A DNA stretch of 64,000 bases from Nitrosopumilus sp. Lineage in GTDB: Archaea; Thermoproteota; Nitrososphaeria; Nitrososphaerales; Nitrosopumilaceae. Of this stretch, positions 1 to 40,274 are shown piece after piece. Position numbers and translations under genes: made by a program. The notes under the pieces are model-generated. The model was not told the origin of the DNA, ran no database searches, and saw only the letters and a program-made list of their open reading frames with translations. Each line of letters opens with the position of its first letter. The first letter of the stretch is position 1. The DNA lies in NCBI GenBank assembly GCA_965223425.1, contig OZ245003.1, positions 2,432,001 through 2,496,000 on the forward strand, read 5' to 3'.

Positions 1-1462
1 CAGAGTCATTTGAACCAATGACTATCATATCATTTTCATGAAAGCTCCAGGTGGAGGCAAACGCGCCAATATCGGCTCCAAAGTTTTCCAGAAATCCAAT
101 GCTGTGTCTGGATGTCCCGTTAATTCTATCAAATGCTGCAACCTTCCAGACATCAGAATCTAAAGAGGCAGGGACATGGCCGTCCTTTGGATGCAGTTCA
201 GCTGATCCGATTTTTGTAATTATCTCAGTCTGCATAAATATTGTATTTGCAAGAACGTCTTTCTTTCTTGATTTAACAAGAAAATCATTTTTTGAGAATT
301 TTTTTAGTTTGACGGTTTTTTTAATCCAGGGCGGTATGGTTTTTTTCTTGAAGGGTACTACAAAACGTCCATTTGAAACCACGAGCTTTCCACCCACAAA
401 GACTTTGCTTGGTTTGAATGATTTCAAGTCATTAAAAACCAGAATGTCTGCTAGTTTTCCAGGTGCTATACTGCCAAGATCTTTTCCCATGTTGTAATAG
501 TCAAAACTGTTCTTAGATGCCATTGTAACTGCGTCTATAGGTTTGAGGCCAAGCTTGATTGATTCCCTGATGCAATGATCAATATGGCCAAATTTTTCAA
601 TATCTAGCGGATCAATGCCATCTGAGCAAAACATCAGGCGGTTAAGATAAGTTCCGTGAGACAAAACACGGGGAATGATTTCCTTCAGGTCGCGCCTTAT
701 CGAGCCTTCCCTAATCATTACCCACATTCCAAGACGCAGTCTTTCTAAGACCTGATCAAAATTAATCGGTTCGTGACAAGAGAGTATGCCTGATGAAACA
801 TAGGCATTGAGTTTTTTTTCACTTATGCCTGCTGTATGCCCATTAATTATACAATCACACTCCAGCATTGCAGAGAGGGATTTCATTGTTTTGGGTTCAC
901 GCAAGGTAACTCTAGTCCACGAAAAAACTTCCCCTAGGCCAAGAACGTGGGGGTGTTTTATTGCGGATTTTTCCTGCGATAGCGAGAGATGCTTGCTGTT
1001 GCTAAATTTTGCATCCACTGGAAGGCCTCCTGGAACTACCTGAAAAAGTCTTGCCGGTAGATCCTCTCCAAGTTTGAGGAATTCTTGAAAGCCCTTGTAA
1101 CCTGAAACGCTAACAATGTCAATCGGATCAGAAAAAAGAGAGGTGACGCCGCAAAGAAGTGCCTTTTTTACAAATTCAGACGGCAATACAAATTGGTCAA
1201 TGTGCAGGTGGGGATCTGCAAAACCGGGGCTTGCATATTTTCCGTTTATATCAATGACTTTGGTTTTTGGACCCATTGTATGCGCAGCATCCGGGCCAAC
1301 ATATGCAATCCTGTCATCAGTTATTGCAATCTGGGTTTTTGGAATAACTTCCTTGGTATATACTGACAACAAGTTACAGTTTTTCAAAACCAGATCAGCT
1401 TTTTTGTCACCCATTGCTACAGAATTCAAGGAAGAGATCGAATGCGCTAGACTCGAAGTCAC
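1..1462 (-). CDS. ade: Adenine deaminase (3' end runs off window start)
   Basis: Not in the ORF track. Manual minus-strand translation from GTG at 1462 gives MTSSLAHSISSLNSVAMGDKKADLVLKNCNLL...PGFADPHLHID (amidohydrolase HxH motif), typical of adenine deaminase. Confidence 0.85.
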   Translation of the reverse strand, partial: MTSSLAHSISSLNSVAMGDKKADLVLKNCNLLSVYTKEVIPKTQIAITDDRIAYVGPDAAHTMGPKTKVIDINGKYASPGFADPHLHIDQFVLPSEFVKKALLCGVTSLFSDPIDIVSVSGYKGFQEFLKLGEDLPARLFQVVPGGLPVDAKFSNSKHLSLSQEKSAIKHPHVLGLGEVFSWTRVTLREPKTMKSLSAMLECDCIINGHTAGISEKKLNAYVSSGILSCHEPINFDQVLERLRLGMWVMIREGSIRRDLKEIIPRVLSHGTYLNRLMFCSDGIDPLDIEKFGHIDHCIRESIKLGLKPIDAVTMASKNSFDYYNMGKDLGSIAPGKLADILVFNDLKSFKPSKVFVGGKLVVSNGRFVVPFKKKTIPPWIKKTVKLKKFSKNDFLVKSRKKDVLANTIFMQTEIITKIGSAELHPKDGHVPASLDSDVWKVAAFDRINGTSRHSIGFLENFGADIGAFASTWSFHENDMIVIGSNDS

Positions 1463-1615
1463 AGTTTTAATTAGATTTTGCGCCTATTATAGATGGTTCT
1501 GTCAAGTTATAGGCACCTGAAAATTTTCAATTCAGGGAAGATCCATATTTTAGCTTTCGAAGATTACATAGAACCGAGGATAGGCGTACATAAATGCTCC
1601 AAAATCATAGAATAT

Positions 1616-2810
1616 TTGTTGAAGGCAACAAAGTCAGTAGCACAAAAATATACACCAAACTCTGACCTAATGGATATGATGGTCACATTCACAGAAATGG
1701 TTAACCGTTGCATCAAGACAGGGTTAAAAGAAGACACACACAATATGAAAGGGTTATCATGTCTATGCTATCACGAATTGAGAGACTGACATTTTATCGT
1801 CATACAAACTAAATGCAATATCAAGGGCTGCTGGCATACTGGCAAACAGAAAACAGTCAATAAAACGTGGCATCAAGGTTAGATACCCAAAGGTAACAAA
1901 GCCGTTTATCACTAATTGTTATGGTATAAAACACAATGGTGCACTACTCACAATCCCATACAAGAGTAGAAATCCAATCAACGTCTTGTTAAACCCACAC
2001 ACCCAAAAAATCCTGTCGAATCCTGCCTTGACAGTACGCTCGTTTTCATTGACTGCCCTCAACATCAGTCTTTGTGTTTCCAAGGAAACTGAAAAGATAG
2101 AATGTACAAAGACAGTAGGAATCGATAGAAATTTGAGGAATGTTACATGTGGCAATGAGGGACAGGTAACATTTTACAAGACAAACAAACTGCTATCCAT
2201 AAAAGAGAACACCATGCACGCCAGAGCCGGATTCTACAGAAATGATCGCAGAAAGAAAGGCCAATTCTGGAAGATAAAACAGCGAAGAATGGCCAATAGA
2301 ACAAAACAATACATACACAGAATATCAAAAGATATTGTGGATAATGCCGTCAAAGAAAAGGCTGTAATCGTTCTAGAAAACCTAAAAGGAATTAGAAAAC
2401 TCTACAAAAAAGGAAATGGCCAAGGCAACAAGTATAGGCGCAGATTAAACGGATGGCAATTCTACGAGCTGCAACGCCAAATAGAATACAAAGCCCAATG
2501 GGTCGGGCTCCCACCAGTCGAATATGTAGACCCAAAAAACACGAGCAAGATGTGTCCAAGATGCGGAAAGAAACTCCAAGAGGACATGCAACACAGTCGT
2601 AAAATGTCGTGTAATAATTGCGGATTGTACATGGACAGAGACATTGTAGCTGCCATGAACATATCACGCAAACTGTCCCCTAGGTTTAGGGATAGTAGAG
2701 ATGACATAGGTGAAGCGCAGTCCGGTGTTTTTGAACCGGCGATGATGGAACCCTGCATACCGGTAATCCAGATAGTCGATATGTCAAAGTCGAGTGATAG
2801 GTGCCTATAA
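1616..2810 (+). pseudogene. tnpB: TnpB/Cas12f-like RNA-guided nuclease, one frameshift at about 1787
   Basis: The N-terminal frame (LLKATKSVAQKY...CYHELRD*) continues in another frame (DILSSYKLNAISRAAGIL...) into ORF 1986-2810. RuvC motifs GIDRN, VLENL and DRDIVAAMNI plus a CPRC..CNNC zinc finger are present. Confidence 0.88.
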
Positions 2811-2822
2811 CTTGACAGAACC
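2670..2822 (+). ncRNA. Putative TnpB omega-RNA scaffold overlapping the tnpB 3' end
   Basis: Stems TGACATA(2702-2708)/TATGTCA(2780-2786) and CCGGT(2722-2726)/ACCGG(2735-2739). Position at the tnpB 3' end and element right end matches the known TnpB arrangement. The 5' boundary is a guess. Confidence 0.55.
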
Positions 2823-2867
2823 TTATAGATTCAATGCTTAAATTACGGTTTGGAAGGTTTTGTTGGT

Positions 2868-3149
2868 ATGAACATTCCCAAGGTGATCAGAAAGTATTGT
2901 GCAAAATGTAAAACACATACCGAACAAAAGGTCTCCATCTACAAGGCTGGAAAAAGACGCGGTTCTGCCAGAGGCGAACGCCGACACGCAGAACGTAAAC
3001 GGGGATATGGCGGACAAAAATTCCCAAAACTGGCAAAACCGGCCAAAGTTACAAAGAAAGTCACTCCCATTATGACATGTACAGTATGTAAAAAGAAATA
3101 CAACAAACCAGGTATCAGAATTAAAAAGTTCGAGTTGGTGGCCGCATGA
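2868..3149 (+). CDS. rpl44e: 50S ribosomal protein L44e
   Basis: MNIPKVIRKYCAKCKTHT...GYGGQKFP...CTVC. Confidence 0.97.
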   Translation: MNIPKVIRKYCAKCKTHTEQKVSIYKAGKRRGSARGERRHAERKRGYGGQKFPKLAKPAKVTKKVTPIMTCTVCKKKYNKPGIRIKKFELVAA

Positions 3150-3343
3150 AAAAGGATCACGTGGAAATTCCAAAACCATCAAGCGAATTTCAAAAAGTTA
3201 ACTGCAATGAATGTGGCGAGCTTCAAGTGGTTTATTCTCATGCAACAACATCGGTTGCATGCAACTCCTGTGGCAACGCCATTACAAAAGCGACAGGCTC
3301 AAAAGCCGAAATAAATGGCAAAGTCTTAAGTAGTGCCGAGTAA
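3146..3343 (+). CDS. rps27e: 30S ribosomal protein S27e
   Basis: PSSEFQKVNCNECG...VYSHA...CNSCG; follows rpl44e. Confidence 0.95.
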   Translation: MKKDHVEIPKPSSEFQKVNCNECGELQVVYSHATTSVACNSCGNAITKATGSKAEINGKVLSSAE

Positions 3344-3913
3344 ATCATAATCCTGCTTTGTGTTTAGATTAAGCGCAATTCTTTTGTCATCAATTACAAT
3401 ATAACTCTCATCTAAATTTTCAAGAGAAGAGATGCTTTTAGAATTTACCAGAGATATTCCGGTATAATGACACTCTTGATTTTCAAAATCAACGGAATAG
3501 TCTGATTTAATTCCAAGCGAAGTTAAAAACTTGTTTGTAACGACGACGCTAGTCCAGATGTTTTGAGGGTTGTATCGGGTGACAATTTTTTGTATGATTT
3601 GTTCATCCAGCAACGGCAGATCACCAGAAGTTACAAAAACATCATCATCATCAATAGTTTGAAGCACTGAACTTAGATCCTCAACATAGCCCATTCCAGA
3701 AGTATCAAAAGTTGCAACATTGTTTTCTTCTAGCAGTTTTTTTGTTTTGGGCGAGCCAGGACTAGTCACTGCTAAAATTTTTGCAAAGCGGTTTGAGCTT
3801 TTCAACGAGTCAATAACATGTAGGATTACTGGTTTTTTGTATTTGAGCAACAGTTTCTCATCATCCAAATTCATGCGAGTGCCTTTGCCGCCTGCCATCA
3901 CAATCCCAATCAT
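3326..3913 (-). CDS. cobY: Adenosylcobinamide-phosphate guanylyltransferase (CobY-like NTP transferase)
   Basis: MAGGKGTRM...EK motif, GDLPL, NLNT; adjacent to cobS. Confidence 0.85.
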   Translation of the reverse strand: MIGIVMAGGKGTRMNLDDEKLLLKYKKPVILHVIDSLKSSNRFAKILAVTSPGSPKTKKLLEENNVATFDTSGMGYVEDLSSVLQTIDDDDVFVTSGDLPLLDEQIIQKIVTRYNPQNIWTSVVVTNKFLTSLGIKSDYSVDFENQECHYTGISLVNSKSISSLENLDESYIVIDDKRIALNLNTKQDYDLLGTT

Positions 3914-38371: not shown

Positions 38372-38850
38372 GGTTCTGTGAAGTTGTCGGTACATGACCA
38401 AAATCACTACTGGTATTGGCTTAATGAGGCGTTTTGAATCAAAGTCTTCCATTTGTTATTTCCATCAATGAGAATGTCTGCCTTTTCTGCTGGTGTCTTT
38501 TTGTCAATTCCACCATGTTTCTTTGAAAAATTATAGTATGCCTGAAAGCCATCAAAGAGTGGACTGTCCATTTTTTTAATTCCTCTATATGCCACTTCCC
38601 TATCCCTGATTGTACCGTTCAGCCTTTCCATTCTGTTGTTGTTCTTGTCGCCTTTCATGTGGATGTGTCTAATGTGTTCGGTTTCTTTCCAAAGCGGATT
38701 CTTTGCCTTGTAATTATCCTTCCAAGCTTGATGAAAGTTAGCTGCACCATCAGAAATTAGAGTAGCTGGTATCTTGTCTGTAATCATCATGGCTTCCCTG
38801 AACATCGGATTGACATTTTCCGTACCTTTTGTCTTTGCCACAAAAAACCA
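38372..38850 (-). mobile_element. IS6-family transposase C-terminal remnant with its terminal IR
   Basis: LISDGAANF (D), NNNRMERLNGTIRDRE (E), YYNF..KHGG..KTPAE; terminus GGTTCTGTGAAGTT at 38372-38385. Confidence 0.78.
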
Positions 38851-39079
38851 GTTTGTACTGGAAGCACAAATCAAGGAGCTTCAGAGTCAGTTATCTGCAC
38901 TAGCTGAAAAATTTGAAAAGGCCACAGGCAGAAAGGCAAGAACGTCAAAACGTGTCAGCATCCCCGTAACTGATGAGGAATTTGCAATGATTGACGAAAT
39001 GGCGTTTAGAACCAAAAAATCAAAGGCTCAATTCCTAAGAAAAGTATTGGTTGAAAAAGGGCTTCCTGCATTAACGTGA
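38851..39079 (+). pseudogene. Ribbon-helix-helix (CopG-like) protein, N-terminus disrupted
   Basis: RTSKRVSIPVTDEEFAMIDEMAFRTKKSKAQFLRKVL. Confidence 0.55.
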
Positions 39080-39130
39080 TATGATATTTCGAAATACCGA
39101 AATACTTTTTTCTTTTTTTGTGGACCTGCC

Positions 39131-40274
39131 GTAGTATGCACATAAAAAACCTGAACCATTTTGACAATTATTTTTGGCCAAAAGATCCAAGACAGGCCAT
39201 ACCGCACACACTGCATGTACAAACAAAAAAAGAGACAGGTTGCAAGGGGGGCAAAATTTCTGCCAAACACCGGCGTTGCAGACCTCAAAAGGGCATACAA
39301 AAAAGAGACCGATCCCAGAAGGCGCGACAGGCTGCTTGCGTACATGCAGCGCAAGGACGGCGTGCCGCTATACAGGATTGGAAGGATGCTGGGAAGGCCC
39401 AAATCCACCATATCTGCATGGCTCAACCGCGCACAGGACGAGGGAATGCGCGCAAGATTCGAGCGCAGCGGCAGGGGACGAAAGCACCTGCTAGGCGGGC
39501 CGCAGGCAGGACAGCTTGCAGCAGACCTGGATGCGGGGCCGGAGTCATGCGGCTTTGAGAGCAGCCTGTGGGACTCCAACCTGGTAAGGCTGCACATCAA
39601 GCGAAAGTTCGGCGTGCAGTACAGCAAGGCAGGCGTGCTGCAGCTGATCAGGGAGATGGGCTTTTCGTGGAGCAAGGCGCGTCCAAAAAACCCCAAGTCA
39701 GCCTCAAAAAGAAAGCAAAAAGAGTTTCAGGAGCGGGCAAAAAAACTCGTTGCAGAAAAGTCGGCGCAGGGATACACCGTACTGGCCGGCGATGCATCCT
39801 CGATTCAAAAGGCATCAAACAGGCCCGGCTACGGGTGGAGAAGGCGCGGCAAGCGCGCCACATCCCCCTCTGTTTTGTCACGCAAGAGAAGATACATCTT
39901 TGGAGTCCTGTCAGCAAGCGCATTTTACTTTATGTTTTATGAAAAGTCAAACAGCGACAGCTTTTGCAGCTTTTTGGAACGGGTTCACAAAAGATTCGGC
40001 AGGGTGCTGCTGTTTGTAGACAATGCGTCATATCACAAATCCAAAAAGGTAAAGGAGTTTCTGGAAAGATACAACGGCGAGATAGTTCTGGAGTACCTGC
40101 TGCCGTACACGCCGGAGCTTAATCCCATTGAGATGCAGTGGAGGGTGATAAAGCGGGTACTGTCTGCAAAGGTGTTTGGCACGCTAGATGAGATGGAGCA
40201 GTCAGTACGCAAGCTGTTTGCCAGAAAGGAGATCCTGCCTGTGAAAATATTCAATTATTTAATGTGCTAACTAC
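39131..40274 (+). mobile_element. IS630-family insertion sequence
   Basis: Imperfect IRs GTAGTATGCACATAAAAA and TATTTAATGTGCTAACTAC; full transposase inside. Confidence 0.88.
39161..40270 (+). CDS. IS630-family transposase
   Basis: HTH, W......I...FGVQYS, GDAS (D), VDNASYH (D), LPYTPELNPIEMQW (E); uninterrupted; true start may be ATG at 39215. Confidence 0.92.
   Translation: MTIIFGQKIQDRPYRTHCMYKQKKRQVARGAKFLPNTGVADLKRAYKKETDPRRRDRLLAYMQRKDGVPLYRIGRMLGRPKSTISAWLNRAQDEGMRARFERSGRGRKHLLGGPQAGQLAADLDAGPESCGFESSLWDSNLVRLHIKRKFGVQYSKAGVLQLIREMGFSWSKARPKNPKSASKRKQKEFQERAKKLVAEKSAQGYTVLAGDASSIQKASNRPGYGWRRRGKRATSPSVLSRKRRYIFGVLSASAFYFMFYEKSNSDSFCSFLERVHKRFGRVLLFVDNASYHKSKKVKEFLERYNGEIVLEYLLPYTPELNPIEMQWRVIKRVLSAKVFGTLDEMEQSVRKLFARKEILPVKIFNYLMC

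Follow-up and report, generated by a model that had tools for sequence, protein, structure and literature searches.

Guide RNAs overlapping the tnpB gene have been described for ISDra2 and the IS1341-group. According to the available text of PMC10097598, the omegaRNA covers the tnpB 3′ end and the right end of the element, the last scaffold bases form a pseudoknot with an upstream loop (in ISDra2 marking the scaffold end), the guide is taken from the right flank with about 12 bp of pairing needed, and the TAM lies upstream of the target. ISDra2 itself has hairpin ends and a Y1 mover. TnpB proteins located within inverted terminal repeats are represented by the branches DDE-1 to DDE-6 of Altae-Tran et al. 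2023 (PMC10691335), in which the tnpB 3′ end is placed near the transposon end and solo copies are moved in trans; the text accessible to us names only IS630 (DDE-6) as a partner family. The partners listed in the available part of PMC13565253 are ISL2, IS630 and IS1031, IS6 not being among them, and the same source describes Fanzors on eukaryotic DDE transposons, with the 5′ TSD within the TAM and the 3′ TSD within the scaffold. IS6/IS26 elements with their archaeal relatives and MITEs are characterized by a GG tip, CTGT, G at position 7, an 8-bp duplication and transposase-less derivatives (PMC7986276, PMC6807381, both in part). The word TnpB does not occur in the accessible portion of the IS6 review (PMC7986276), and the portion of PMC6563490 that counts thaumarchaeal IS families does not describe such a pairing. 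A literature search covering few subscription journals gave no paper that names TnpB together with IS6 ends or Nitrosopumilus.

The locus described here combines traits of these systems. The window, a stretch of 64,000 nucleotides from Nitrosopumilus sp., belongs to a genome (G000) that is 99.99% complete. As in the DDE branches and Fanzors, the gene of an RNA-guided nuclease is enclosed by terminal inverted repeats (TIRs) and, as in Fanzors, by a target site duplication (TSD); the ends and the 8-bp duplication are those of the IS6/IS26 group; and the RNA, guide and TAM arrangement of ISDra2 is predicted. In contrast to ISDra2, the element has TIRs, a TSD and presumably a DDE mover, and its guide would open with the 8-mer of the duplication, a copy of which also borders the left end. 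Unlike in Fanzors, the motif lies outside a variable TSD, which would itself be the guide seed. The features of the locus, with positions counted within the window, are as follows:

1484..1486, + strand: CTA, whose T-purine pair (1485-1486) adjoins the left TSD on its outer side; by inferred function a candidate TAM
1487..1494, no strand: left 8-bp TSD, TTATAGAT, a single copy in 13/13 orthologous loci
1495..1518, + strand: left TIR, IS6-like (GG tip, CTGT), from a repeat search of the sequence
1519..1575, - strand: IS6-like right-end remnant nested in the left end, absent from the nearest sibling
1616..2810, + strand: tnpB pseudogene, probable start TTG at 1616 or 1619 (judged from the alignment), frameshift near 1786-1790
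2124-2126, 2376-2378 and 2640-2642, + strand: codons of the RuvC residues D, E and D, kept in this copy together with the C4 zinc finger
2672..2822, + strand: predicted omegaRNA scaffold, overlapping the tnpB 3′ end and the right TIR
2672-2696, + strand: hairpin with loop GGTTT at 2683-2687, part of the predicted omegaRNA
2702-2708 with 2780-2786, + strand: helix, part of the predicted omegaRNA
2683-2687 with 2818-2822, + strand: predicted pseudoknot between the hairpin loop and the terminal five bases of the right TIR
2799..2822, - strand: right TIR, its final five bases (GAACC on the + strand) forming the 3′ strand in the predicted pseudoknot
2823..2838, + strand: right TSD (2823-2830) and flank, the predicted guide, with a boundary suggested by pseudoknot and motif position

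The two TIR arms are perfect over 24 bp, as a preliminary description of this DNA had claimed; the runner-up inverted repeat within 1000-3400 has 21 nt and 71%. The ends, GGTTCTGT, match the IS6/IS26 description (TIR of 15-20 bp) in the GG tip and cTGTt and partly in the caaa motif, and the first 14 bases of the left TIR are equal to the end downstream of an intact IS6-like transposase at G000:C1:918405. Positions 1495-1575 form an 81-bp MITE-like unit, the joint of which (1538-1587) is present in runs X3 and X4. The exact 8-bp duplication reported earlier was found again, and the empty allele with one TTATAGAT that had been proposed as its check was found as well: in run X4, a contig with a depth of 17.6 runs from 1466 straight to 2823 through a single copy, and all 13 orthologous loci from the genus lack the element and hold one copy each. 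The TTATAGAT pair is a true target site duplication. The 16 nt following the element are identical to the empty site in 10/13 of the relatives' loci, the other three running into a different neighbour. The insertion site is a divergent promoter, in which the left TSD appears to overlap a conserved TATA-like box of the leftward host gene. We take the flanking genes to be ade and rpl44e. A sigma-70 promoter scan, based on a model ill-suited to archaea, returned chance numbers only.

The enclosed open reading frame is a TnpB (NF040570, 130.9 bits with a cut-off of 100; PF07282, 78.8 bits), with the RuvC I/II/III residues D-E-D, a C4 zinc finger and about 400 aa, although the window copy is frameshifted. 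The gene changes frame near 1786-1790, where its siblings and contigs from runs X3 and X11 are two bases longer. No second gene was detected among the ORFs examined between the TIRs; tnpB is thus the sole gene, as described earlier, but the frameshift of this copy had been overlooked, the siblings being intact. The catalytic D, E and D are present in 25/25 intact copies, and a full tnpB frame was identified in 80/97 two-ended elements, with 17/97 lacking one. For intact frames, dN/dS takes values of 0.35, 0.21 and 0.12 as dS rises, and 0.34-0.35 inside two genomes; at the level of sequence comparison, tnpB of this clade is under purifying selection. The one RNA run, metatranscriptome X11 (share of words 0.06), yielded assembled contigs of related copies; these cover parts of the element and are not taken as evidence of expression.

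At E <=1e-30, protein matches were found in 60/301 genomes of the order and 20/301 of the phylum, the named records including Nitrosopumilus, Nitrosotalea, Nitrososphaera, Bathyarchaeia and Methanomethylicota; record OZ240211.1 has at least 20 copies. In a midpoint-rooted FastTree phylogeny of 189 reduced rows these proteins group in one archaeal clade with a support of 0.96, separate from viral TnpBs and from those of other Thermoproteota. The IS6-type right end accompanies 173/214 proteins scoring at least 300 bits on the clade profile and 3/41 proteins below 120 bits, one of these three being a mis-picked frame. The end type therefore maps to one clade in the tree that the preliminary description had called for, and close homologues in ordinary IS605/IS607 ends, which it had named as evidence to the contrary, do not occur among the loci examined. 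Viral contigs hold distant TnpBs only, with 22-42% identity on short segments, and plasmids no close relative, the best rows having 24-28% identity. In genome G021, two loci (L017, L019) carry a distant second TnpB subfamily with 31% identity, in 18-bp ends that are almost those of the window copy; ATAT stands upstream of both TSDs. Three outgroup loci from other Thermoproteota (L172, L174, L176) have an HTH-like ORF of 60-75 aa about 220 bp upstream of tnpB, which we presume to resemble the N-terminus of IS607 TnpA without the catalytic part.

The hairpin ends, missing TIRs and TSD and Y1 TnpA of IS200/IS605 or IS1341 are not found in this element, nor are the serine-recombinase TnpA and the lack of TIRs and TSD typical of IS607; neither Y1 TnpA (PF01797) nor IS607 TnpA (NF033518) gave a match in G000. 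Twelve copies with both TIRs and differing flanks were identified in this genome. The TSDs are exact in seven and near-exact in one (all eight different), swapped in two and unmatched in two; further copies comprise two without a left end and three 3′ fragments. Eight of the copies are mutually 96-99% identical. The swapped TSDs belong to an inverted pair (G000:C1:1325308-1326598 and 1451399-1452689) and fit recombination or replicative inversion, being compatible with a putative inversion of about 125 kb mediated by the element. The swapped and unmatched TSDs would also agree with replicative cointegrate formation. The many copies with TIRs of the same type and different 8-bp TSDs agree with the earlier prediction, the duplication being 8 bp in 60/64 TSD-verified elements, 7 bp in three and 9 bp in one.

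Several copies in G000 have been remodelled. Two (G000:C1:594860-596170 and 2292730-2293870) have taken up other insertion sequences, 1.1-1.3 kb long and presumably IS630-like by their motifs. Another two (G000:C1:654560-654800 and 785141-786534) have the same substituted left end, about 100 bp long; in one of this pair the right TSD recurs 2.6 kb off, before a different GGTTCT end, and the ORF between the two TSD copies is assumed to be IS110-like. Elsewhere in the window, an IS6-like end with a truncated transposase (38372-38880) is followed by an HTH fragment of an IS630-like element (39028-39500). Three 1.23-kb elements at G000:C1:1052642, 1204488 and 2031900 belong to a different family; they have GGTGCTGTCC ends, TSDs of 9 bp and a transposase-like frame of 329 aa.

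Transposases of IS6-like type with D-D-E motifs are present in G000, where they have matching ends; IS6-like transposases are also present in 4/4 other tested TnpB-bearing genomes. These candidate partners in trans score above the cut-off for PF13610, and at 111 and 122 bits just below the NF033587 cut-off of 125. Compared with IS6/IS26 they are long (about 345-400 aa), possess an N-terminal zinc-binding region and reside in cargo-bearing elements of 2-7 kb (L608-L646, L495, L498, L502, L514). Because of the NF033587 scores and the view in the accessible part of PMC6807381 that archaeal elements should be split off from IS6 proper, the partner is called IS6-like here and not IS6/IS26. Many of the autonomous IS6-like elements insert about 6 bp from a TATA-like box, which hints at promoter- or TBP-linked target choice. 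Such elements also often stand at a distance of exactly 8 bp from another copy's end (L615:10437-12950, L622:6355, L635, L638, L644, L005:1935); the end / 8-mer / end spacing forms tandem arrays and suggests self-targeting beside existing ends.

No tnpA was found inside 51/51 full elements, nor among 136 ORFs upstream of copies without a clean left end (143 loci examined), in agreement with the earlier expectation and in contrast to the DDE branches. A search for an autonomous element with both tnpA and tnpB, taking ORFs of at least 100 aa, was likewise empty for these two sets and for the IS6 loci L131-L162, which gave two weak TnpB matches at locus edges only. The TnpB clade co-occurs with IS6 matches (37/60 versus 101/241 genomes, p 0.009), a statistic that is weak because related genomes are not independent. 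Taken at this level, the earlier proposal of a non-autonomous element moved in trans by an IS6-type DDE transposase is supported with the change that the partner is IS6-like; mobilisation in trans by such an enzyme is very highly probable.

The tnpB 3′ end and the right TIR would together encode the omegaRNA. A GGTTY loop, at a fixed place after RuvC-III and complementary to the terminal GAACC, occurs in 136/145 tails (mean of 10 in shuffles), and a stem encloses it in 144/152. The arginine codon supplying the GG is AGG or CGG far more commonly than elsewhere in the gene (36%). The two helices covary over 27 aligned tails, with 12 two-sided pairs, 96% paired and 0/500 shuffles reaching this, a control inflated by kinship. 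The five pseudoknot pairs are nearly invariant, with two-sided change in 0/5 (alignment A3). The left TIR deviates from GGTTC with the right one kept in 16/62 elements, the reverse never being seen; L110 and L111 show a compensatory GGCTC:GAGCC between loop and end. Against the pseudoknot, a relaxed search gave eight loops with C opposite an unchanged A. No Rfam match with E up to 1 was returned over 1400-2950. A hairpin spanning the inner right TIR was rejected as a general feature (median z -0.56), some copies forming one. From these patterns, a predicted omegaRNA pseudoknot can be closed by the terminal five bases of the right TIR. In ISDra2 such a pseudoknot marks the scaffold end; here the guide would therefore begin at the TSD, which we regard as highly likely from the sequence pattern.

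The outgroup loci pair CGTTC:GAACG and CGTTG:CAACG, and three of them GGTTC:GAACC; these three suggest that the ancestral RNA may already have ended in the complement of an IS6-like tip. Several derivatives (L444, L478, L481 and L486 of genome G677, and G000:C1:1199933-1200276) keep only the tnpB 3′ end and the RNA scaffold. They are MITEs of 208-497 bp, plus one element of 1454 bp, and the scaffold-only MITEs are possible guide-RNA-only parasites of TnpB.

Immediately outside the left TSD, T at -2 and a purine at -1 were found at 12/12 left ends in G000, compared with 4/17 right ends and 6/39 other IS6-type ends. The 64 TSD-verified elements were sorted into subclades by best reference protein, the window copy falling into subclade A. 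In this subclade T-purine occurs at 30/30 left ends versus 6/30 mirrored positions; 23 of the 30 copies come from two genomes, each a separate insertion. The other subclades have it less regularly (F 8/10, E 4/9, D 1/3, B 1/5, C 1/7), B and C having near-identical ends with TAT or TTT instead (T-purine 2/12). Two-ended elements without a TSD show it in 25/33 cases. The motif is retained in 6/6 tnpB-deleted derivatives that keep the 3′ RNA end, one of them without the first hairpin, and it tracks the TSD edge in 3/4 elements with 7- or 9-bp duplications.

As a control, TnpB-free IS6-like elements with TIRs and TSD carry T-purine at either end in 13/42 cases; per end this is 14/84, equal to the genome background of 13% (p 0.33). 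The tnpA-bearing ones have it in 9/35. Fisher tests of subclade A against these controls gave 4e-10 (42 TnpB-free) and 8e-11 (35 tnpA-bearing). Eight control rows adjoin another IS6-like end, and leaving these out gives 13/34 (p 2e-8); the three GGTGCTGTCC-ended elements, as another family, are omitted from the control. A first IS6 control with 1.5-kb flanks was too short, only 2/32 loci being paired. T-purine followed by a 12-nt guide match was not detected in G000 for 17/17 predicted guides. Guide-directed insertion was considered and finds no support: flanks of siblings are no more alike than column shuffles (p 0.30 and 0.62 in G000, 0.08 and 0.86 in G677). The one-sided motif suggests that the nuclease may influence which insertions arise or survive. 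By its geometry, T-purine is probably the TAM of a predicted TnpB cleavage activity.

The reading that we favour, with a probability of about 0.58, is movement in trans by an IS6-like transposase followed by TnpB cleavage of empty alleles, by which TAM-adjacent insertions are kept. An IS6-like DDE transposase encoded elsewhere would recognise the TIRs and insert the cassette with an 8-bp duplication, landing in AT-rich intergenic, often TATA-adjacent DNA with no need of the motif. The tnpB 3′ end and right TIR would fold into the omegaRNA, whose scaffold is expected to stop at the terminal CC of the element, with the right TSD and flank as the guide. An empty site reads T-purine, TSD, flank, and would thereby offer a TAM and a full protospacer, cleavage being assumed by analogy with ISDra2. 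At a filled site, the match at the left junction covers 8 nt only and the motif is missing from the right junction, and occupied sites would therefore be spared. TnpB would cut empty alleles, and repair from the filled allele (homing or restoration) would keep and spread only TAM-adjacent insertions. The window copy has no reading frame but keeps ends, scaffold and motif, and a sibling TnpB could therefore serve in trans. Both cleavage by TnpB and expression of the RNA are predictions in this family. That the filter acts after insertion rather than during it is slightly favoured. Such a filter must be very strong, with 0/30 exceptions, though motif-less IS6-like insertions get fixed. The restorative role known for IS605 would be without an obvious substrate here, because bacterial IS6 transposition is replicative and involves no excision (PMC7986276, accessible portion). 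The near-invariance of the pseudoknot pairs, the origin of most subclade-A copies in two genomes and the loose subclades D and E also count against this reading.

A different use of the same components would be that TnpB-omegaRNA, tethered to the right end of the donor, binds TAM DNA without guide pairing and hands the target to the IS6-like transpososome, fixing both position and orientation. The lack of exceptions in subclade A and the strict orientation agree with it, as do the motif in every derivative keeping only the RNA end and its shift with the TnpB subclade; autonomous IS6-like elements of the same genomes are without it (0/2 with TSD in G677), as expected if the RNA is needed in cis. 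All of these observations are, however, also predicted by post-insertion selection, the targets are not guide-like, no transposase gene travels with tnpB, and the literature examined offers no precedent. On this view, capture would have been possible because the ancestral omegaRNA terminus, CAGAACC, was already the reverse complement of the IS6-like tip, one sequence thus acting as transposon end and pseudoknot strand. Direction of an unrelated IS6-like DDE insertion by TAM binding seems doubtful to us; if true, a Cas12 ancestor would be coupled to integration in a minimal way, by two genes in trans. Fixed genomes cannot separate a post-insertion filter from TnpB-steered insertion.

The motif could also stem from the transposase or the host promoter, the element landing beside TATA/BRE with the T-rich bases being BRE on the other strand and TnpB adapted to them or irrelevant. 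A TATA-like hexamer lies 6-14 bp from the TSD at 14/70 ends of tnpA-bearing elements versus 4/62 tnpB right ends (p 0.04) and at 5/7 subclade-C left ends, and the IS6-like transposase therefore has a TATA-adjacent, T-rich bias; the window TSD sits in a divergent promoter as well, and a transposase sub-lineage dedicated to tnpB-element ends may be a source of the motif. This bias can account for the motifs of subclades B and C but, on the sequences compared, not for that of A, where only 4/30 copies have the hexamer. Moreover, T-purine occupies BRE-anchored positions in only 17-22% of 172 G000 promoters (crude gene call) versus 39/43 (p 1e-21) and one-sided IS6 right ends in only 12/59, and several G000 copies follow a stop codon at 19-64 bp instead of lying at a promoter; such an origin is improbable. 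That tnpB is an inert passenger, like the cargo that IS6-like elements routinely carry here, would fit the window copy and the two-ended elements without a full frame, but it is hardly credible given purifying selection, intact catalytic triads, the conserved covarying scaffold, the extra constraint on the right TIR, the one-sided motif and the old clade-wide association.

The geometry of the motif has a counterpart among the DDE branches: for DDE-5, the legend of Additional file 11 of PMC10691335 places a TA motif upstream of the end, at 8 bp, as T-purine is placed here. The available text of PMC10691335 counts DDE-5 among plasmid-borne branches, which have rearranged catalytic sites, whereas this clade is chromosomal and archaeal with a canonical D-E-D. 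One DDE branch of that study, compared by description only, may already cover this clade. TnpB in DDE/TIR elements moved in trans is already in print (PMC10691335, available text), and the IS6-like, archaeal pairing is a variant; the prokaryotic parallel to Fanzors on TIR transposons drawn in the preliminary description holds, having been catalogued there for other DDE families.

The pairing bears on why transposons without clean excision or sequence-specific targeting keep TnpB. Here a TAM-like motif is obligatory only for elements carrying the RNA end, and the right TIR is in double use, as transposon end and as predicted RNA pseudoknot strand. Since TnpB-free elements with the same ends are a natural control, homing and steered insertion can be directly distinguished by experiment. 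The clade is also a source of nucleases of about 400 aa from mesophilic archaea; their predicted TAMs are short and T-rich, the predicted scaffold measures about 150 nt, and derivatives reduced to the scaffold occur naturally.
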